Positions 2,233-10,773 of a DNA stretch of 20,000 bases are shown piece by piece (the first letter of the stretch is position 1; each line of letters starts with the position of its first letter). The stretch comes from an uncultured virus (IMG/VR IMGVR_UViG_3300025751_000002). Lineage: Duplodnaviria > Heunggongvirae > Uroviricota > Caudoviricetes. Both the position numbers and the translations under genes were made by a program. Under the pieces are notes generated by a model. It made no database searches. It saw only the letters and a list, made by a program, of their open reading frames with translations, and was not told where the DNA came from. Location: the IMG/VR virus record IMGVR_UViG_3300025751_000002; one strand, written 5' to 3'.

Positions 2233-3543
2233 TTATTCTTTTGCTTGATTAAGTAATGCCTGGAATTTTTTCCGCATTTCTGCATCAACTTCTAGCCCGC
2301 CTGCACCGTAAGTAGGTTGCATGTTGACAGTAGAAGGAAGGCCTTGCGGTGCACCTAAACCAGGAGGTGGGGTTGGAATCATTTGTGATTGCATTTGATA
2401 ACCCATTCCTTGACGTGCTGCATTACCTGCATCTTGGCCAATCAAGGTTTGTTGAATGACATCGTATCCTGCCTGACCAGGTTTTACAGCACGTGCAAGT
2501 GTTGGATTAGCTTTTGCCCACATCTGCATACCGATATCTTCTGCCGATTGAACTTGTGCAGGTGTTGCGCCAGGTGCAACAGCAAGTTCACGTGCATCAG
2601 CGTAACGTTTTAGTTCAGGATCCTGTGCGGTCAACTGAGCAACACGTGATGCTTCTTGCATGTAAGCACGATCTTGTGCACTACCTGGGATGTAACGACC
2701 ATACATGCCGGTTTCTTGTGCACTACCTGGTGCTGCTACATCAGGTGATGCCTGGCCTCTATTGAAACGCAAACCTCGGCCTTGTCCCCCTCTTGCTCCA
2801 CGGGGAGAAGCTTGTTCAGCAGCAGTTTTTTTACCTGGCGTTGAATCGAGATAATCACGACCTTGCAAAAGATTGCCTATGCCAGTACTTAACCTTTGGA
2901 CACTTGTAATGATATTATCCTGAGGATTTAATACTTTTTTTGAAGTTTCATAAATTCCGTATCCAGTTCCAAGGGGACCAAGGACTTTTGCTGCTGGTCC
3001 TGCAAAACGACTTAATGAACCAACGGCATTAATTGCATCATCTGCAAGATTTACGGCAGCTCGTCCTAAATTAGCTCCGGTTGCAGAAACCTTAGGAGTA
3101 AGTTTATTGGCAACTTGTTGAGCGCCGCCTGTCCATCCAAATTGTCTGCGTAGTGCAGGATCAAACTGAAGGGGGCTACCAGGGATTTGAGTAGCTGGTC
3201 CTTGCGACAAAACTGTGCTGGCTGCAGAAGGAGTTCCAATTCCAGGGGCACGTAACATGCCGCCGGGTCCTGCAGAGCTAATAGGAGGTTGGTTAGGAGG
3301 TTGTATAGAAGCGCGTGTGAGTGTATTTTTGGCAGCAGTCCTAGCGGCTTCTTTTGCAGCGCCTGGGGGCATTTGGTTAATCTGATCTAGTGTATTTAGA
3401 TAACTAGTAGGTAAACCACCCCAATTAACATTACCTGGCACTGCACGTGAAAGCACATTGCCTGCAGCTTCTTGAAGAAAACGGTAATTACGAGGATCGG
3501 CGACACCTGATTGCCGAACAAAATTAGCTAAAAAGTTTTCCAT
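2233..3543 (-). CDS. Gly/Ala/Pro/Gln-rich hypothetical protein, possible internal virion/ejection protein
   Basis: Long ORF. ATG at 3543 overlaps the TAA of the previous gene (TAATG) and is preferred to the TTG at 3552. Function inferred from composition and position only. Confidence 0.65.
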   Translation of the reverse strand: MENFLANFVRQSGVADPRNYRFLQEAAGNVLSRAVPGNVNWGGLPTSYLNTLDQINQMPPGAAKEAARTAAKNTLTRASIQPPNQPPISSAGPGGMLRAPGIGTPSAASTVLSQGPATQIPGSPLQFDPALRRQFGWTGGAQQVANKLTPKVSATGANLGRAAVNLADDAINAVGSLSRFAGPAAKVLGPLGTGYGIYETSKKVLNPQDNIITSVQRLSTGIGNLLQGRDYLDSTPGKKTAAEQASPRGARGGQGRGLRFNRGQASPDVAAPGSAQETGMYGRYIPGSAQDRAYMQEASRVAQLTAQDPELKRYADARELAVAPGATPAQVQSAEDIGMQMWAKANPTLARAVKPGQAGYDVIQQTLIGQDAGNAARQGMGYQMQSQMIPTPPPGLGAPQGLPSTVNMQPTYGAGGLEVDAEMRKKFQALLNQAKE

Positions 3544-4004
3544 TACCTCCAATTCTCCATTAAATACATGCGGGAGCCAACGGCGGTGTCGGCAGGACCA
3601 GGTAATGCCTGGATAAATTCAGCACCAGATCTTTCATAACGATATCTGGCTTGGAACGGATCTTTGTAGTTTGGTACGTAAAGAATTTGTGCCAAACGAT
3701 TGGTTTCGTAGAGATAAATCTCGTCCCAAACCTTTAAAGCTTCCTTTGCATTGCTAGATCTAATCGTACGATCAACGTCACCAGCAATACTTTCCAAACG
3801 GGTGGAAGGTGAGGTTGCAACTTCTGTTTTCTTTTCAGCCGTATCACAACGACCAATTTGAATAGCTACCTTATCGTAAAAATACGAATCAGGAATTGTA
3901 TTCATTGCTTCTTCCAGCCTGGCATAATCACCCGCTGGAACAGAAACCGTGAAGTAGCCCAGGTGATACCGGACTCTACTCTTATCAAAATCAGATAGCT
4001 GCAC
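3543..4004 (-). CDS. Putative head completion / head-tail adaptor protein
   Basis: 153 aa, GTG start, helical-looking sequence (LSDFDKSRVRYHLGY), downstream of the capsid genes. The function is a positional inference. Confidence 0.5.
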   Translation of the reverse strand: MQLSDFDKSRVRYHLGYFTVSVPAGDYARLEEAMNTIPDSYFYDKVAIQIGRCDTAEKKTEVATSPSTRLESIAGDVDRTIRSSNAKEALKVWDEIYLYETNRLAQILYVPNYKDPFQARYRYERSGAEFIQALPGPADTAVGSRMYLMENWR

Positions 4005-4060
4005 CGTTTATTTCCGTTTGTTTTTTATTATAAATGCACTGAATTAAAAGAATTTGCAAG

Positions 4061-4089
4061 ATAAAACCCCTGGTCGCCCAGGGGGTTAA
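4061..4089 (-). terminator. Rho-independent terminator
   Basis: Minus strand reads AACCCCCTGG-GCGA-CCAGGGGTTTTAT: a GC stem, GNRA loop and U-tract just after the stop of 4095..4523. Confidence 0.8.
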
Positions 4090-4094
4090 TATCC

Positions 4095-4523
4095 TCAAAC
4101 TCTGATTAAATCAGCTGCAAGAACTGCGTCCCAATCAACCCTTTTAATCTGTTTTAACTGTTCGAGATTATTAAACCTTTCACCCGATAAGGACATCTGA
4201 AGATCTTTAATCTCTCTAGCTGTTTTAAGTCCAATACCTTTAATATGATCAGCGATCATTTGAGGTGTTGCACCATTAATATTTAACCGATTATCAGGGG
4301 GAAAAGTGCGAGGTTCTTCTTTTGCTGCTTTATCTTTTACCTGAAGAGTTTTAACAGTTTTTGTTGCAGCCTCATCAGGTGTAATTTCAGTTTTATAAGC
4401 AGTGAAAAGGCGACCATCCTGATCTTCGACCATGAACCAATCGCCATTATCCCATTCGCTTACAACCTTGACACGTGCACCTGTTTTTTTGTGCTGATAA
4501 AGCATCGAAGGAGTAGTTGTCAT
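4095..4523 (-). CDS. Helix-hairpin-helix (ComEA/HHH_3-like) nucleic-acid-binding protein with small N-terminal beta domain
   Basis: LNINGATPQMIADHIKGIGLKTAREI...ERFNNLEQLKQIKRV matches the ComEA-type pattern (ININ.A...L..l.GIG...A..I....F....L..v.g). Confidence 0.8.
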   Translation of the reverse strand: MTTTPSMLYQHKKTGARVKVVSEWDNGDWFMVEDQDGRLFTAYKTEITPDEAATKTVKTLQVKDKAAKEEPRTFPPDNRLNINGATPQMIADHIKGIGLKTAREIKDLQMSLSGERFNNLEQLKQIKRVDWDAVLAADLIRV

Positions 4524-5398: not shown

Positions 5399-6550
5399 TC
5401 AGACGGTACCATCGTCTTGGATGAAGCTGAATGCGGTGGTAACGAAGTCCTTGTTCAGGATTTCAAAACCAGCATACAGTTGCCAGATCAGGATGATGAA
5501 GCGGCTGAAGTCGTCGTTGTTGTTGATGAGCACCTGAGCGTTCGGGCCGCCGATACCAACACCAATCGACTGAGGACCAAAGAAGTAACCTTGGGCAACT
5601 TCCTGGGAAGTGTAGGTGGAACCAGCATCGAACGAAGCGTTGACGTTCTTGATGGGGAAGTTGGTCGATTCGAAGAACTTCACACCTTCAAACTGAACAC
5701 CAGTAGGCATCACCGGCTCACCGGCAAGGAAGTAACCTTGACCAGCCTGGGGACCCATGTAGAAGCTGGCGTTGTTAGGCATCATGGGATTACCCATGTA
5801 CATGCCTTGGCCAGGGGTACCAGCGTAACGAGCGATCTCACGGAAGTCAGGATCACGACGCAGATGCATCATGAAGACGGGATCGCAAATGCAACGATAC
5901 AGACCATCAGCGAAGGTAGGAACGTTACGCTTACGCAGATCCTTAACAACGGTCAGAAGGTCAGTACGCACCTGGAACTGCTGAGTTTGGCTTTGGTACT
6001 CAGCAAGGCTATAGGTGATTTGACCGGAAGCATTCTTTTCCTTAGCACCAGCGAAGTAGTAACCGCCTTGTGTGGTGGAGGCAGCACCGTTTGCTTCTGC
6101 TTTGGCAAGTTCATCAATGAACACACGATCACGCCACCGGCGATAATCATCGAGCAGAGTCAGCGAACCAATGCTCTGGTGGAACATGTTCAGGTTACCG
6201 GTATCCAGCAGCAGACGCTGGGCGGTAATCAGGGTTTCACGAGCAATTTTGAAGGTGCTGGGCTGAGTGGGATCACCCGGATCAGCAGGGCCAGTGTATT
6301 CTTTCAGAACAACAAGCACCTTTTCCTTGGTGATGTTGCGGCTATTGGCAGTACCAATGGTCTGATCAGAGATACGCTCGCGGCTATCCTTCGTACCAGG
6401 GGTACCCCAGAACTTATAGCGATCTAACTGAACGGTTTGACCGGGCTGACGAGTGAAGTCGTGGACAACCACGGGCTCCACAGCCATCTCGGTAACATAA
6501 GCAGGGTGAGGACGATAAAGTTCCGCACCTAAAATCTTTGGAAAATCGTT
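5399..6550 (-). CDS. Major capsid protein, exon 2 (spliced gene = complement(join(5399..6550,7377..7388)), 387 aa)
   Basis: The frame is open 21 codons upstream of the listed ATG 6487 (NDFPKILGAELYRPHPAYVTE) with no in-frame start before a TAA in the intron. It has HK97-fold-like features (DFTRQPGQTVQLDRY, DLRKRNVP, GVQFEGVKFFES, DDFSRFIILIWQLYAGFEIL), strong codon bias, and sits after portal/scaffold. Confidence 0.85.
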   Translation of the reverse strand, partial: NDFPKILGAELYRPHPAYVTEMAVEPVVVHDFTRQPGQTVQLDRYKFWGTPGTKDSRERISDQTIGTANSRNITKEKVLVVLKEYTGPADPGDPTQPSTFKIARETLITAQRLLLDTGNLNMFHQSIGSLTLLDDYRRWRDRVFIDELAKAEANGAASTTQGGYYFAGAKEKNASGQITYSLAEYQSQTQQFQVRTDLLTVVKDLRKRNVPTFADGLYRCICDPVFMMHLRRDPDFREIARYAGTPGQGMYMGNPMMPNNASFYMGPQAGQGYFLAGEPVMPTGVQFEGVKFFESTNFPIKNVNASFDAGSTYTSQEVAQGYFFGPQSIGVGIGGPNAQVLINNNDDFSRFIILIWQLYAGFEILNKDFVTTAFSFIQDDGTV

Positions 6551-6788
6551 CTCCTGGTCTCTAGTTTCTTAGAGGGGTGGACTATCTCTTCATCCCTGTG
6601 GGATGCCGGACGCTGAATCTGGTATTACGTAACAAGATCGTGTTACCCCCAGTAGTCTCTGCACCTTCCAATCACGTTCTTGATTGGCTTGGCTCAGGAT
6701 TACCCTCGTCTTTACGTTAGGGCTTCCCTGAATTCATCCGGTTTGCACTCATCAATTGCTTGGTGAGGTGACAACGTTGAGCGTTCAG
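6551..6788 (-). ncRNA. Group I ribozyme core (P1 3' strand/IGS, P2-P9)
   Basis: P AAUUCAGGGAAG (6734-6723), Q AAUCCUGAGC (6701-6692), R GUGCAGAGACUA (6664-6653), S AAGAGAUAGUCC (6590-6579). P3 CCGGAUG/CGUCCGG; P7 GACUA/UAGUC; P8 CAUCCC-ACA-GGGAUG; P6 extension CCAAUCA/UGAUUGG; P9 CUCUA/UAGAG; IGS CGUUGUCA (6776-6769). Confidence 0.92.
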
Positions 6789-6805
6789 TTGAGGCGTGCT
6801 ACAGT
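6777..6805 (+). promoter_or_regulatory. Predicted sigma70-type promoter of the HNH gene
   Basis: TTGAGC (6777-6782), 17-nt spacer, TACAGT (6800-6805) with an extended TGn. It ends 23 nt before ATG 6829. Confidence 0.55.
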
Positions 6806-6828
6806 CTGGAAACCTGTTTATAAACAAC

Positions 6829-7374
6829 ATGAATCCAAAACTTGTTCCAGGATTTGGTAATCTTTACTTAACGGAAGAAGGGAAAGCTTTTGAAAAACAA
6901 CTTGATCCCGATAATCAAGAATATTTTCTAGAGATTCCTATTAGTTCCACCAGTGTTTACGACCGTATTTCAGTTCTTGTAGATGGAAAGAGAAAAAGAT
7001 TTCATCTTCACGTCTTGATGGCAATTGCTTTTTTAGGATTAGATCTGCGTTCTCATGGAACCAGTAACTTTTCCCTACAGATTGATCACAAAGATAACAA
7101 CAAGAGAAATAATCAACTTGCTAATCTTGAGATCGTTACCAAACAAGAAAATTTAACAAGAGCCTGGGAAAACGGTTGTTACAAAAACAATGGTTTTGCC
7201 AGTAAAGGAAAGCCGAAGAAATCTTTGAGAAAATTTTCTTCGGATGACGTGAAACAAATTAAATCTTTAAAAGAAGCAGGTCTTTCTTATAGAAAAATTG
7301 CTGAAAAATTTAACTGTAATCACGGAGCTATTTACCAAATCTTGAAGGGACATACCTACCAGGATCTGAACTAG
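6829..7374 (+). CDS. HNH homing endonuclease (HNH_3 / I-HmuI-like) with C-terminal HTH
   Basis: NUMOD4-like N-terminus (KLVPGFGNLYLTEEG), HLHVLMAIAFLG, IDHKDNNKRNNQLANLEIVTKQEN, and HTH LSYRKIAEKFNCNHGAIYQIL. AT-rich relative to the MCP. ATG 6829 is preferred to GTG 6796, which lies inside the predicted promoter. Confidence 0.92.
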   Translation: MNPKLVPGFGNLYLTEEGKAFEKQLDPDNQEYFLEIPISSTSVYDRISVLVDGKRKRFHLHVLMAIAFLGLDLRSHGTSNFSLQIDHKDNNKRNNQLANLEIVTKQENLTRAWENGCYKNNGFASKGKPKKSLRKFSSDDVKQIKSLKEAGLSYRKIAEKFNCNHGAIYQILKGHTYQDLN

Positions 7375-7376
7375 CT

Positions 7377-7388
7377 ATCAATGAACAC
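7377..7388 (-). CDS. Major capsid protein, exon 1 (GTG TTC ATT GAT = MFID)
   Basis: GGAGG SD at 7403-7399, 10 nt before the GTG. Unspliced, the frame stops after MFIDS. The exon pairs with the IGS through a U-G wobble at the splice site. Confidence 0.85.
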
Positions 7389-7428
7389 TTTAGTTTATCC
7401 TCCAGTGTCAGTGTTTTTATCGGGTGAA

Positions 7429-7489
7429 AGATAAAGACACATGTGTCTTATCTAAAACAAATTCTAGCAGGTAATAAGCTTTAAGCTTA
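7429..7489 (-). promoter_or_regulatory. Predicted MCP promoter and leader with two palindromes
   Basis: Extended -10 TGCTAGAAT (7469-7461). Palindromes AAGACACATGTGTCTT (7434-7449) and TAAGCTT-T-AAGCTTA (7475-7489). Confidence 0.5.
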
Positions 7490-8068
7490 CATATACTGCA
7501 TAGTAGGTGCTTTATAGCGTGCACCAGGGGAGTTGCTAGATCCGTAGGATTCAGGATCAATAGCCATTCCTTGTTGGAATCCAGGGACACCCAGTGATTC
7601 AGGGATTGCACCAAGCGCTAAACCTCCTAGTCCAGCAGCAGCCGCAGATGCTGGCACTAAACCAGCTGCAAGTCCCTTAGCAACATTCTGCTGAACAGCT
7701 TGGCTTGGGAAAGGAAGTGCAGCTGAAACTCCAGCTAAAGGATCACCAAATAAACGAGCATCTACTGCAGAAACTGCATCAGCTCCAATATTTGCAGCTT
7801 TGCGACGCAAGCTATCTTGTGGAAGATCGCGTGCCACGTCACCAATCTTGTTCCCAAGACGAGTAACTTGTTTTTGCGCCGCTGCAACTAAAGCAGGGTT
7901 GTACTTACCTGCAAGTGCACGGGCTCCTAATAGTCCTGCTGCGCCGCCCAAAGCACCAGTACCTGCAGCAAGTGCAGCAGATCCTGGATCTTCATTCTGA
8001 GAAAGGGCATACCCGCCGGTCAGCAAACCAGCTGCAGCGGGTACACCGTATCTATAAGCGCCACGCAT
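7487..8068 (-). CDS. Ala/Gly-rich hydrophobic hypothetical protein
   Basis: 193-aa ORF starting 4 nt after the scaffold stop, with glycine-zipper-like segments. Confidence 0.7.
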   Translation of the reverse strand: MRGAYRYGVPAAAGLLTGGYALSQNEDPGSAALAAGTGALGGAAGLLGARALAGKYNPALVAAAQKQVTRLGNKIGDVARDLPQDSLRRKAANIGADAVSAVDARLFGDPLAGVSAALPFPSQAVQQNVAKGLAAGLVPASAAAAGLGGLALGAIPESLGVPGFQQGMAIDPESYGSSNSPGARYKAPTMQYM

Positions 8069-8072
8069 GGAA

Positions 8073-9026
8073 TCACTCCATTACAAACAGCTTGTTGGAA
8101 ACCACTTGAGGCTGAGCGTTATTCAGGAGACGCCATGCCTGGCTGGGATCCACATCCATTTGTTGCTTAAAGCTGCCCCAGAAGTTTTCAGGTTGCTGAG
8201 GAGCTGCTGCGGTAGGAGGAGCAGGGAATTGACCCAGGGCAGAATCAATCGGTGCAGTGGGATAACCACGGGTTTCCAATTGAGCCTCATCCTCATACAC
8301 AGGATAGGGACCCTCAGGACCAAAGAACTTCAGCGTGTAATCGCTAAGTACATCGGGATTGGTCAGGATCTCGTTGTATGCCAGGTTCTCCTGGTGCTCA
8401 TTAACACTGAATTCGGCATAGCCATTCAGCAGTTCTTGTGCTTTGCCACCCCAGGCAACAGCACTATCCAGCATATCTTCCAGCTGGAGAGCATAATTAT
8501 TTAGAATTGCGGGAGCTTCTGTTCCGTACGCGCTTACCACGTTCCGGCTTTCCGGGCTCCAATCCAGGAGATCCGCTACGTCCTCCAATGATTGAATCGA
8601 GGAAGTTTGGGAAGAGTTGGGCGAGTAGGCCTGGTTGGGTAATGAGGTCTGCGGAGCCGATTGTTGCGTACCCAGGTTGCTGGGAAGCTGGCCGTAGTTG
8701 GCTGGACTGTATTGCGTCGTCTGAGACGGTTGACCCTGGAACGGGGATTGAACTGGTGCGCTCAGCAGATTCACCACCTTGTTGAACGCCGATTCCCATG
8801 GGTTGCCCTGGGCTTCCGGTTGGGATTGGGGGGCGTACTGCGTAGGGGCTGATTGGTAGCTGGGGGCTGCCTGTGGTACCGCCTGAGGGTAACTGGTACC
8901 CACCTGATACTGGACTGGTGCTGCCACTGGAGCTTGCGCCGGAGCCGGAGCCACGTAGCTGCTCGGAGCCACCGCTGCCGGAACTTGGCTCGTCTGTGGG
9001 ATCGATTGGACGGTAGCGTCCTGCAT
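8073..9026 (-). CDS. Putative capsid scaffolding/assembly protein
   Basis: AAGGAG SD upstream. Pro/Gln/Ala/Ser-rich disordered N-terminus and acidic helical core, located between portal and MCP. Confidence 0.6.
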   Translation of the reverse strand: MQDATVQSIPQTSQVPAAVAPSSYVAPAPAQAPVAAPVQYQVGTSYPQAVPQAAPSYQSAPTQYAPQSQPEAQGNPWESAFNKVVNLLSAPVQSPFQGQPSQTTQYSPANYGQLPSNLGTQQSAPQTSLPNQAYSPNSSQTSSIQSLEDVADLLDWSPESRNVVSAYGTEAPAILNNYALQLEDMLDSAVAWGGKAQELLNGYAEFSVNEHQENLAYNEILTNPDVLSDYTLKFFGPEGPYPVYEDEAQLETRGYPTAPIDSALGQFPAPPTAAAPQQPENFWGSFKQQMDVDPSQAWRLLNNAQPQVVSNKLFVME

Positions 9027-10773
9027 AACTCATCTCCTTTTGTAAGGCTTCTAATGTTCGATACAGATATGGTGTTAGATCCAATCTGGGATCCGCAGCC
9101 ATCGGTAGATCCGGTGCTTGCGGGTGAGGAGTCTGCATCATTCCCCCCACTAGACGAGCAAATTGAGAGTAAGCACCCTGCAATTCGTTCACCATCCTGA
9201 ATGGGAACCCAGATAGCATCTCGGCTCTTTCCTCATCCGTTTTAGAAGGGAAGAGGTACTTCAGTGCTTCAATGCTATCAACACCTAATTCCTGAAGGTT
9301 TCTTACAACAATAGAGTTGTTAAGAATATCTTGCGTGGAATCTTCATAGACGGGACCAAGCCAACGCCATAAAACAGTTAGATCCCCATCAGGAATTAAC
9401 CCAACAACACTTGGTGGTATTTGTTGAGTTTCCACACAAGCTAACATAAGTTTCTTCAATTGTTCGTTATATTGACTTAATGCATCTTCGTATGCAGCCT
9501 GTTGTTCAGGTGGTGCATCATCAGGTAATTCAACTGGTTTCTCCATACCAGCAGCAGCCGCAAGTGTTGTTTTAAACAGCTGCTCTTCTTGATAAATAAT
9601 AAGTTCTAGACAACGACAAATACCGTGGGTGTAAATGGCGTTTGCTTTCTTCTTTGATGTGGCGGCAACGCGGCCAAACAATGATTTGTATTCAGTTGCA
9701 GTAACACCTGCAGAAATTGACAACTCATCCACGCCACCAAGAGCGGTACGGATCTCTTCCCTATACTGACGGGCAAATGCGTTTTGATCACCTGTAATAG
9801 CATCTGGAACAATATAACCAACACGATCGTTTGGTTCCAGGTTTGCAATAACTCTTGGAACCCTGATCTGACCATCCATGCCACGGCTGACTGGATCAGC
9901 TTTAAACATGGAACGGCTCATGGGCGAAGGGCTCATGAAACCTGAGTTAGCAGCAATAGATGGCCGTTGAACGGACATATCACCACCTGCTTCCATTAAG
10001 TCGGTTTTAGGCCGAGAGGAAAGCAATGTTGGATTACCAAAAAAGGTAATGTTCTTGCGCATCGTGCGCATTAAATCATCATGGGTGCAGATGTGATTTG
10101 CCATTTGGTCAAATTCACCCACCCCTTCATTGGAGAAGCCTTGGGCATTGTTGATGATCTCAACACATGGAATAAAACCAAGGCTATTTTTTAACTTCTT
10201 TGTATTGCCCGTTAGGGCATAAGTGGGCATATCAAAATTTAATTCTGCATCAGAATGAGTTTCTTCAATTTCTCTTCCTTTAATAGATAAACGAATATAG
10301 CGTTTTGCTCCAGGGCTATAAGTACTTTGTGTACCTGAAATACTCGTAGTATTAATTGCTTCGCCGAAACCGTTGCCTTTACGTACCTTATAACTGTAGA
10401 TAATTACAACTTCATCAAGTTCGCCATCAACGTTGTAATAGGCACGATATTCGTGATCACGAAAATAGTAAAGCCGATAGTTCTGTTTAGTTGGCCGAAT
10501 GTAAAAAAGACCTTTTCCATCACATAAAAAGTATTCCCAGATGGAATCCAAACGGGTATCAATCTTGTTGTACTTTAGTACGCGATCGATAAAGTCCTTT
10601 CGTTGAGCACCAAAGTTATCCTGGCCTGCAAAGAATTCAACTCCTTGGCGAATGCCAAAAAGTTTCATTTGTGCTACGTGGGACGCAACAATGCCCGTAT
10701 CAACAACAATGTTGCTATCTTTATCTAGATAGGCATTGATAATTTCTTGAAGCCGGGCTCTAGCGTCCGCCAT
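8497..10773 (-). CDS. Putative portal protein with long C-terminal tail overlapping the scaffold gene
   Basis: Largest ORF between terL and MCP, with AGGAG SD. Portal-like layout (YFLCDGKGLFYI, LGFIPCVEIINN...GVGEFDQM, LTVLWRW). Assignment rests mainly on synteny and size. Confidence 0.72.
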   Translation of the reverse strand: MADARARLQEIINAYLDKDSNIVVDTGIVASHVAQMKLFGIRQGVEFFAGQDNFGAQRKDFIDRVLKYNKIDTRLDSIWEYFLCDGKGLFYIRPTKQNYRLYYFRDHEYRAYYNVDGELDEVVIIYSYKVRKGNGFGEAINTTSISGTQSTYSPGAKRYIRLSIKGREIEETHSDAELNFDMPTYALTGNTKKLKNSLGFIPCVEIINNAQGFSNEGVGEFDQMANHICTHDDLMRTMRKNITFFGNPTLLSSRPKTDLMEAGGDMSVQRPSIAANSGFMSPSPMSRSMFKADPVSRGMDGQIRVPRVIANLEPNDRVGYIVPDAITGDQNAFARQYREEIRTALGGVDELSISAGVTATEYKSLFGRVAATSKKKANAIYTHGICRCLELIIYQEEQLFKTTLAAAAGMEKPVELPDDAPPEQQAAYEDALSQYNEQLKKLMLACVETQQIPPSVVGLIPDGDLTVLWRWLGPVYEDSTQDILNNSIVVRNLQELGVDSIEALKYLFPSKTDEERAEMLSGFPFRMVNELQGAYSQFARLVGGMMQTPHPQAPDLPMAADPRLDLTPYLYRTLEALQKEMSYAGRYRPIDPTDEPSSGSGGSEQLRGSGSGASSSGSTSPVSGGYQLPSGGTTGSPQLPISPYAVRPPIPTGSPGQPMGIGVQQGGESAERTSSIPVPGSTVSDDAIQSSQLRPASQQPGYATIGSADLITQPGLLAQLFPNFLDSIIGGRSGSPGLEPGKPERGKRVRNRSSRNSK

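Follow-up and report, generated by a model that had tools for sequence, protein, structure and literature searches.

How can an endonuclease gene lie backwards inside the substrate helix of a group I intron, in a capsid gene that is presumably among the most heavily expressed genes of the phage? The question is raised by a 20,000-nucleotide (nt) stretch of DNA from an uncultured member of the Caudoviricetes (IMG/VR virus record IMGVR_UViG_3300025751_000002), which is called the window in its entirety here, and in particular by the region around positions 6551–7388. Our answer, which we hold with a probability of roughly 0.85, is that the capsid gene of a freshwater cyanophage resembling S-EIVl is interrupted by a mobile group I intron, whose loop L1 carries an HNH endonuclease gene on the opposite strand. 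An earlier sequence-only reading had placed this gene antisense in the stretch that separates the 5' splice site from the internal guide sequence (IGS), with a helix closing off the insert, and the comparisons described below indicate that this structural interpretation is correct, with unusually strong support from natural variation.

The limits of the intron were established by comparison with Synechococcus phage S-EIVl, which is the nearest named relative of the window and has a capsid protein 86% identical to that of the window; the nearest match of all, virus record G001, is 100% identical across 6300–7700. The S-EIVl capsid gene is unbroken and opens with GTG TTC ATT GAT ACC GAC TTT CCT (MFIDTDFPKIL). 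In the window, the ribosome-binding site and GTG TTC ATT GAT are found at 7403–7377, and AAC GAT TTT CCA picks up at 6550. Since the S-EIVl-like capsid text stops at 7377 and restarts at 6550, the intron was assigned to 6551–7376, where it interrupts the capsid gene after codon 4; the predicted spliced product has U7377 joined to A6550 and reads MFID-NDFPKIL across the junction. The features of the interrupted gene are as follows:

7398..7403, minus strand: Shine-Dalgarno-like motif GGAGGA of the capsid gene, from sequence reading; an identical motif precedes the intron-less S-EIVl capsid gene
7377..7388, minus strand: capsid exon 1, GTG TTC ATT GAT (M F I D), last base U7377, from the S-EIVl comparison and 57 intron-less junctions
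6551..7376, minus strand: group I intron of 826 nt with terminal G6551 (omega G), from Rfam RF00028; length and ends from aligned loci
5399..6550, minus strand: capsid exon 2 (NDFPKIL...), 383 codons and stop, phrog_1357 major head protein

The Rfam model Intron_gpI (RF00028) matched positions 6829..6558 on the minus strand with 91.2 bits (E 1.4e-22; gathering score 50). Of 20 related loci scanned, the 19 carrying the capsid intron were also matched, with scores of 82–99 bits; these loci represent the two lineages of the intron, designated clades A and B, and included 13 clade-B loci with an antisense HNH gene and six that belong to clade A or lack the open reading frame (ORF). Base pairs were counted in 17 aligned introns from both clades, with slid pairing partners serving as the control. 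Over the whole structure, 94.8% of the cells were paired as compared with 31–41% in the slid controls, and 27 pairs had changed on both sides as compared with 1–6. The parts of the RNA delimited in this way are:

7374..7380, minus strand: 5' strand of P1, UGAU followed by AGC across the 5' splice site; 7 of 7 pairs in 17 of 17 introns
7366..7371, minus strand: 5' arm of the closing helix, GUUCAG, the complement of which encodes the final two HNH codons
6789..7365, minus strand: L1 insert of 577 nt, with about 28 nt in its place in ORF-less introns (alignment with loci L008 and L081)
6783..6788, minus strand: 3' arm of the closing helix, CUGAAC, from pair counts in the 17 aligned introns
6769..6776, minus strand: IGS, with a P10 part at 6776–6773 (CGUU) and a P1 part at 6775–6769 (GUUGUCA), from pairing
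6551..6768, minus strand: ribozyme core, comprising P2 with a GCAA loop (6767–6748), P3–P9 and the P7 pseudoknot, from the Rfam alignment and pair counts

Helix P1 is made up of 7380–7374 with 6775–6769, the guide sequence located 601 nt downstream supplying the partner for the last four exon bases and the first three intron bases. It contains the wobble pair U7377.G6772, and a U-G pair between the last exon base and the guide was present in all 17 aligned introns. The pair at position −4 covaries (C-G in 11 introns and U-A in 6), and the switch from U-A to C-G accompanies a synonymous exon change from ATT to ATC and a guide change from A to G. The limits of 6769 and 7380 given by the sequence-only reading coincide with the outer ends of this helix, and the HNH gene does lie wholly between its two strands, as had been claimed. 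The 6-bp closing helix was 100% paired in each of the 17 introns and five of its six pairs had changed on both sides, the variants being GUUCAG/CUGAAC, ACUCAG/CUGAGU, GCUCAG/CUGAGC, GCUUAG/CUAAGC and GCUCCAC/GUGGAGC. The helix proposed earlier thus exists and covaries, while its first arm had been placed one position off, at 7370–7365 in place of 7371–7366; the length of roughly 580 nt proposed for the insert agrees with the 577 nt that we measured.

P10 (6776–6773 with 6547–6550) consists of 4 bp that were 100% paired; one-sided G-U changes occurred twice, and no pair had changed on both sides. The terminal G was found in 43 of the 43 introns examined. The ribozyme core was 95–100% conserved. 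Within the 17 introns, each of P2, P3, P6, P6a, P7, P8 and P9 contained one or more pairs with changes on both sides. P4 and P5 were invariant, and the P7.1-like inserted helices aligned poorly between the clades (57–61% paired). A first model of P2, CAC(C)UCA/UGAGUG, was rejected as it clashed with P1, and a covarying 8-bp P2 with the GCAA loop was adopted. Folded alone, the ORF-less intron of L008 forms the closing helix and the core. Over positions 6559–6762 of the window, the core has 71–85% DNA identity to introns of unrelated phages, namely Klebsiella and Escherichia jumbo phages, Vibrio phages (terminase genes), Bacillus phages (DNA polymerase genes) and Synechococcus phage S-CBWM1 (psbA).

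The gene enclosed by P1 is the following:

6829..7374, plus strand: HNH homing endonuclease gene of 181 amino acids (aa), antisense to the intron and in L1 (Pfam HNH_3, phrog_59)

The ORF extends from 6796 (GTG) or 6829 (ATG) to 7374. The ATG at 6829 is the start common to the relatives and the GTG at 6796 is not shared; among 41 ORF-bearing introns, the aligned start codon was ATG in 32, GTG in 8 and TTG in 1. The predicted protein matched Pfam HNH_3 (E 9e-9; 35.3 bits, cut-off 24.8) and phrog_59 (E 3e-26), and its residues 43–176 could be aligned with residues 38–160 of the solved structure of I-HmuI (1U3E, chain 1u3e_M; E 8.6e-7). This alignment reaches the C-terminal part of I-HmuI, and a match to HTH_38 within the C-terminus of the HNH protein (E 3.3e-5; 24 bits) fell under the cut-off of 27. 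Homologues were recovered in 107 clusters at 49–96% identity. Residues H87, N99 and N108, which we take to be the catalytic positions of the HNH motif, were invariant in 18 proteins spanning 50–96% identity. The median ratio of nonsynonymous to synonymous substitution rates (dN/dS) was 0.106 in clade A (55 pairs) and 0.108 in clade B (93 pairs), indicating purifying selection, and no internal stop was present in any of 39 copies; the gene therefore looks functional as far as its sequence can tell. That it is the only convincing plus-strand gene of the window was borne out, as none of the eight other plus-strand ORFs of at least 100 aa matched a PHROG and all eight overlap an ORF on the minus strand that also has 100 aa or more.

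With the ribozyme on the minus strand and the HNH gene on the plus strand, the two are antisense to each other, and the same was observed in 40 of the 40 other complete ORF-bearing introns examined. The end of the gene and the 5' part of the intron RNA are read from the same base pairs. The HNH protein ends in YQDL(N/S) followed by the stop in the clade A and clade B copies read, distant homologues ending otherwise, and the final two codons are written on the strand opposite the closing helix. The stop codon TAG (7372–7374) complements bases 7374–7372 on the P1 side and, with the 5' splice site set between 7377 and 7376, stands 2 nt from it, the distance stated earlier. It was also correctly noted that one CTAG palindrome stops both the HNH gene and the unspliced capsid peptide: CTAG at 7371–7374 yields TAG on either strand, and the minus-strand TAG is in frame (GTG TTC ATT GAT AGC TAG). 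In one homologue, P0062, the stop is lost and the ORF extends by 12 residues (…NELSINTVCFSS); read on the window sequence, this extension passes over the 5' splice site and continues on the complement of exon 1.

The sequence-only reading had suggested searching phage metagenomes for the same intron with and without the L1 ORF. Both kinds were recovered by a capsid search of viral contigs, in which the best 80 of 599 relatives were analysed, and in which the counts do not represent population frequencies:

57 of 80 loci: intron-less, with exons 1 and 2 abutting exactly at the junction of 7377 and 6550
15 of 80 loci: intron with a complete antisense HNH gene
1 of 80 loci (L044): intron ending inside the HNH gene at the contig end
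2 of 80 loci (L008 and L081): ORF-less intron of 276 nt with a short L1
5 of 80 loci: intron ending inside the core at the contig end, the state of L1 lying beyond the contig

In the ORF-less introns, a short hairpin stands where the 577-nt insert would be, and the closing helix retains its two arms. Just past this helix the ORF-less introns keep the antisense codons Y-Q-D-L-N, which are unpaired in the fold of L008, and because the last five HNH codons are thus retained we read these introns as deletion derivatives. The layout was also seen in clade B, in which 25 of 25 loci share the insertion codon of the intron and carry an antisense HNH gene in L1. All clade-B loci carry the gene by construction, since they were found by means of the HNH protein (63% identical). 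Compared with the window, their capsid proteins are 65–74% identical (about 68%) and their HNH proteins 53–65% (about 62%). Of these 25 loci, the Rfam scan covered 12, and the ends of L1 were read in 12.

Some individual loci deserve mention in their own right. The intron of L006 (2165–3012) looks chimeric, with P1, L1 with the HNH gene and P2–P5 resembling clade A and P6–P8 matching clade B (alignment columns ~701–800), a pattern that suggests recombination between the two intron lineages. L107 has a second group I intron at 1877–2148 on the minus strand of the locus (Rfam, 65.7 bits), near residues 37–39 of the same capsid gene and downstream of its HNH-bearing codon-4 intron. In L108 (2501–3589) and L109, a group I core (3260–3589; 60.7 bits) is preceded by a distant HNH relative (31% identical) that is encoded in the sense direction, and a tblastn search of the neighbouring DNA of these two loci gave no match to the window capsid protein.

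Mobility of the element was addressed by mapping intron presence on a capsid tree of 81 rows, from which the 60 nt adjoining the intron were left out. At least 14 changes (gains or losses) are required, and well-supported branches force at least nine of these. Intron state differs between near-identical capsids, as in the window, L003 and L005 versus L004, in L006 versus L007 and in L070 versus L073. The flanks were compared by means of BLAST identities, as an ungapped comparison of close pairs was unusable past about −34 owing to indels, and loci with an upstream match shorter than 90 nt, among them L004, L017, L019 and L025, were left out. Over the upstream 110 nt, the median identity to the window was 93.6% in 14 intron-bearing loci versus 80.0% in 51 intron-less loci, with no overlap between the two sets; over the first 251 nt of exon 2, the identity was 86.85% in both sets alike. 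We infer that the upstream flank travels with the intron, which is the pattern expected of a one-sided co-conversion tract left by homing.

Two candidate promoter elements are located ahead of the HNH gene:

6797..6805, plus strand: extended −10-like site TGCTACAGT (TGnTAnnnT), a putative promoter 32 nt ahead of the HNH start
6777..6782, plus strand: candidate −35-like element TTGAGC, 17 nt upstream of the −10-like site, complement of the closing helix/IGS loop

A TAnnnT hexamer was found at −36..−27 of the HNH start in 41 of the 41 ORF-bearing introns, and it was preceded by TGn in 38 of them. Thirteen different hexamers occurred among these loci, in which T, A and T are fixed and the middle three bases are free, and the TAnnnT/TGn pattern was present in 8% of control windows within the coding region. 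TTGA is kept in both clades at a spacing of 15–17 nt. Judged by its sequence, the site looks like an extended −10 promoter. The proposal made by the sequence-only reading, that nuclease expression is decoupled from capsid transcription, appears consistent with the data.

Taken together, our model is that the HNH gene would form a transcription unit of its own, read by a sigma-70-type polymerase from the putative extended −10 promoter ~30 nt before its start and convergent with late capsid transcription, and that nuclease synthesis would hence be independent of the capsid message. The enzyme would nick or cut the intron-less capsid alleles of co-infecting relatives close to where the intron inserts, repair of the cut allele would copy the intron together with the upstream flank, and the ORF-less introns would be products of deletion.

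A number of observations weigh against this model. With respect to the RNA, the minimum-energy fold of the full 850-nt molecule formed most of the core, but neither P1 nor the closing helix; since the single-sequence fold missed both, these helices rest on covariation. With respect to mobility, the number of gains and losses could be overestimated if the capsid gene has itself recombined, and three of the intron-bearing loci left out of the flank comparison (L017, L019 and L025) are only 80% identical over 55 nt. The promoter is open to several objections. TTGA complements conserved ribozyme sequence, and its conservation may owe nothing to a promoter. A consensus promoter scan flagged no site ahead of the HNH gene, the proposed hexamers matching 8 of 12 consensus positions with a scan cut-off of 9, and the sole promoter match of that scan, at 7085–7113, lies inside the HNH coding region. 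The 41 loci share descent, so that 41 of 41 does not amount to 41 independent events. No convincing terminator for the HNH message was found; a plus-strand terminator-like match at 7411–7440 is not specific to the HNH gene, because an overlapping hairpin is also present in intron-less S-EIVl.

Contigs from RNA libraries speak for either side. Four metatranscriptome runs were viewed as assembled contigs, which convey neither strand nor transcript ends and in which uncovered bins carry no meaning. A contig skipping exactly the 826 nt of the intron was present in two of the four runs; contigs covering the HNH region were present in all four, one of them crossing the 5' splice site unspliced. Because intron-less alleles exist as DNA, a joined contig is no proof of splicing, and carry-over of DNA could account for the cover of the HNH region. 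These contigs are compatible with splicing and transcription, and equally with intron-less strains and DNA carry-over. In run X5, record 13 (window 6549–6685) may point to a related intron, located either in a different gene or in a divergent capsid gene.

The same data can be arranged into other histories. It is possible, though in our estimation rather unlikely, that a free-standing endonuclease gene invaded an ORF-less intron as a safe harbour and mobilises itself or its flank, the antisense orientation being a relic without regulatory meaning. ORF-less introns of the same family do exist, related cores are present in the terminase, DNA polymerase and psbA genes of unrelated phages, the 31%-identical HNH relative in L108 and L109 precedes a different group I core and has the sense orientation, and the flank travels with the element on one side only, all of which would suit such an invasion. 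However, both ORF-less introns retain the last five HNH codons and so look like products of deletion and not like ancestors. Moreover, the antisense L1 layout is kept down to 53% HNH identity, and the 3' end and promoter-like site of the gene are interlocked with P1 and the region adjacent to the guide, which speaks for long co-evolution. More improbable still is a history in which the HNH protein was domesticated as a splicing helper or as a regulator of the 5' region of the capsid gene, with no homing, the patchy distribution being due to precise loss and recombination alone. Purifying selection by itself does not identify the activity that is retained, the sub-threshold C-terminal helix-turn-helix match (HTH_38) would suit a regulator, and intron-less close relatives, such as L004 next to the window, could be precise losses. 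Yet the invariance of the HNH-motif histidine and asparagines down to 50% identity is at odds with this history, and the intron and its upstream flank segregate together in unrelated capsid backgrounds, for which gene conversion is a simpler explanation than loss. We give next to no credence to the notion that the intron is a dead relic, with the capsid gene starting at the internal ATG at 6487 and the 12-nt 'exon' having no meaning. That ATG is followed by an open frame, but the frame is also open all the way up to the 3' splice site, and the intron-less S-EIVl protein has conserved counterparts of the 25 residues that precede M6487; in addition, the high conservation of the core is accompanied by compensatory changes, and P1 follows the synonymous exon change from ATT to ATC with its guide change from A to G.

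Returning to the mobile intron with its antisense nuclease gene, a regulatory extension can be formulated, which we consider speculative and on balance unlikely. Since the end and the stop codon of the HNH gene complement P1 and the closing helix, and the promoter-like site complements a stretch adjacent to the guide, gene and ribozyme would be physically interlocked, neither being easily lost or changed alone, and the convergent layout would act as a timer. Early in infection, host polymerase would make the nuclease, with a message that is antisense over the capsid start and ribosome-binding site; later, strong capsid transcription would silence the nuclease, both through collision and through pairing of the RNAs. 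If true, such a timer would be a regulatory use of antisense orientation that has not been described for phage introns.

Other observations concern the surrounding locus. The recognisable genes of the window, encoding terminase, portal, capsid and endolysin-like proteins, are all on the minus strand. A 317-aa ORF (8073–9026, minus strand) overlaps the 3' end of the portal ORF (8497–10773, minus strand) by ~530 nt; because S-EIVl annotates a 133-aa gene after its portal gene, translation of the downstream gene probably begins at an internal ATG. A strong hairpin at 7411–7446 (AGAUAAGACAC...GUGUCUUUAUCU on the minus strand) separates the capsid ribosome-binding site from the gene upstream of it; this hairpin is the one shared with S-EIVl and may be a processing or partial termination site ahead of the capsid message. 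In the S-EIVl record (L001, KJ410740.1), the capsid region (2917–4143) is annotated as two hypothetical proteins, one of them on the wrong strand, and the full 383-aa capsid ORF (2992–4143) is absent from the annotation. Since gene callers overlook a 4-codon exon, capsid genes of the S-EIVl-like lineage are likely truncated in databases.

The value of this locus lies in the fact that, in wild phages, a single site shows the homing cycle in all three of its states, namely empty, intron with nuclease and intron minus nuclease. Close relatives differ only in homing state and the cultured, intron-less S-EIVl could be a recipient, which would make a natural test system. The ribozyme apparently tolerates an insert of 577 nt within its substrate helix, at a distance of 12 nt from the start codon, and the conserved promoter-like site makes testable the idea that a backwards nuclease gene keeps a timing of its own, separate from that of its host gene. 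In the available portions of the literature on phage group I introns, antisense and HNH endonucleases, cyanophage capsids and S-EIV1, no description of this cyanophage capsid-intron element was found.

With regard to known systems, the I-HmuI alignment places the window protein in the same family as I-HmuI, I-HmuII, I-BasI and I-PfoP3I, the HNH nicking enzymes of group I introns in phage DNA polymerase genes, and it is similar in size to I-HmuI (181 versus 174 aa). According to the sequence-only reading, I-HmuI, like I-TevI and I-TevII, is encoded on the sense strand of its intron. The HNH gene of the window is antisense in L1, and its host gene is a capsid gene and not a DNA polymerase gene. 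I-PfoP3I is described, in the available portion of its report, as a freshwater cyanophage enzyme that nicks one strand (PMC3428280).

The sequence-only reading had held that antisense endonuclease genes are known mainly from nuclear ribosomal DNA (rDNA) introns. They are well established there, but the statement was incomplete, as a phage precedent exists in mycobacteriophage LittleE. The part of the LittleE report available to us describes a capsid intron with an endonuclease ORF, gene 14, on the bottom strand, and splicing of this intron that was shown by reverse-transcription PCR and N-terminal sequencing; a promoter for gene 14 is not described in that part (Pope et al., 2013; PMC3706429). 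In the LittleE record (JF937101), gene 14 is on the minus strand and inside the joined capsid coding sequence. LittleE and the window hence share a phage major capsid gene with a group I-type intron and an endonuclease ORF on the opposite strand. They differ in that gene 14 matches LAGLIDADG_3 whereas the window gene is an HNH gene, and in that gene 14 lies directly 3' of the core match (core 1859–2062, gene 2065–2598 in L128), whereas the HNH gene lies in L1. The core match of LittleE is weak, falling short of the gathering score at 30.7 bits; the LittleE intron is located mid-gene and not after codon 4, and the host of LittleE is an actinobacterium, unlike that of a cyanophage.

For the nuclear rDNA group I introns, the portions of the reports available describe insertion of endonuclease genes in peripheral loops including P1, and, in Didymium Dir.S956-2, the I-DirII gene antisense to the ribozyme with a promoter of its own (PMC3073962; PMC3679873). 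These introns differ from that of the window in being eukaryotic and in rRNA genes, and in having a polymerase II promoter, a spliceosomal intron and a poly(A) tail. Their antisense endonucleases also belong to a different nuclease family from that of the HNH protein described here. The antisense layout is therefore not unprecedented; what is distinct here is the combination of an I-HmuI-like HNH enzyme, a position in L1, and a gene end and likely promoter that are interlocked with the substrate helix of the ribozyme.

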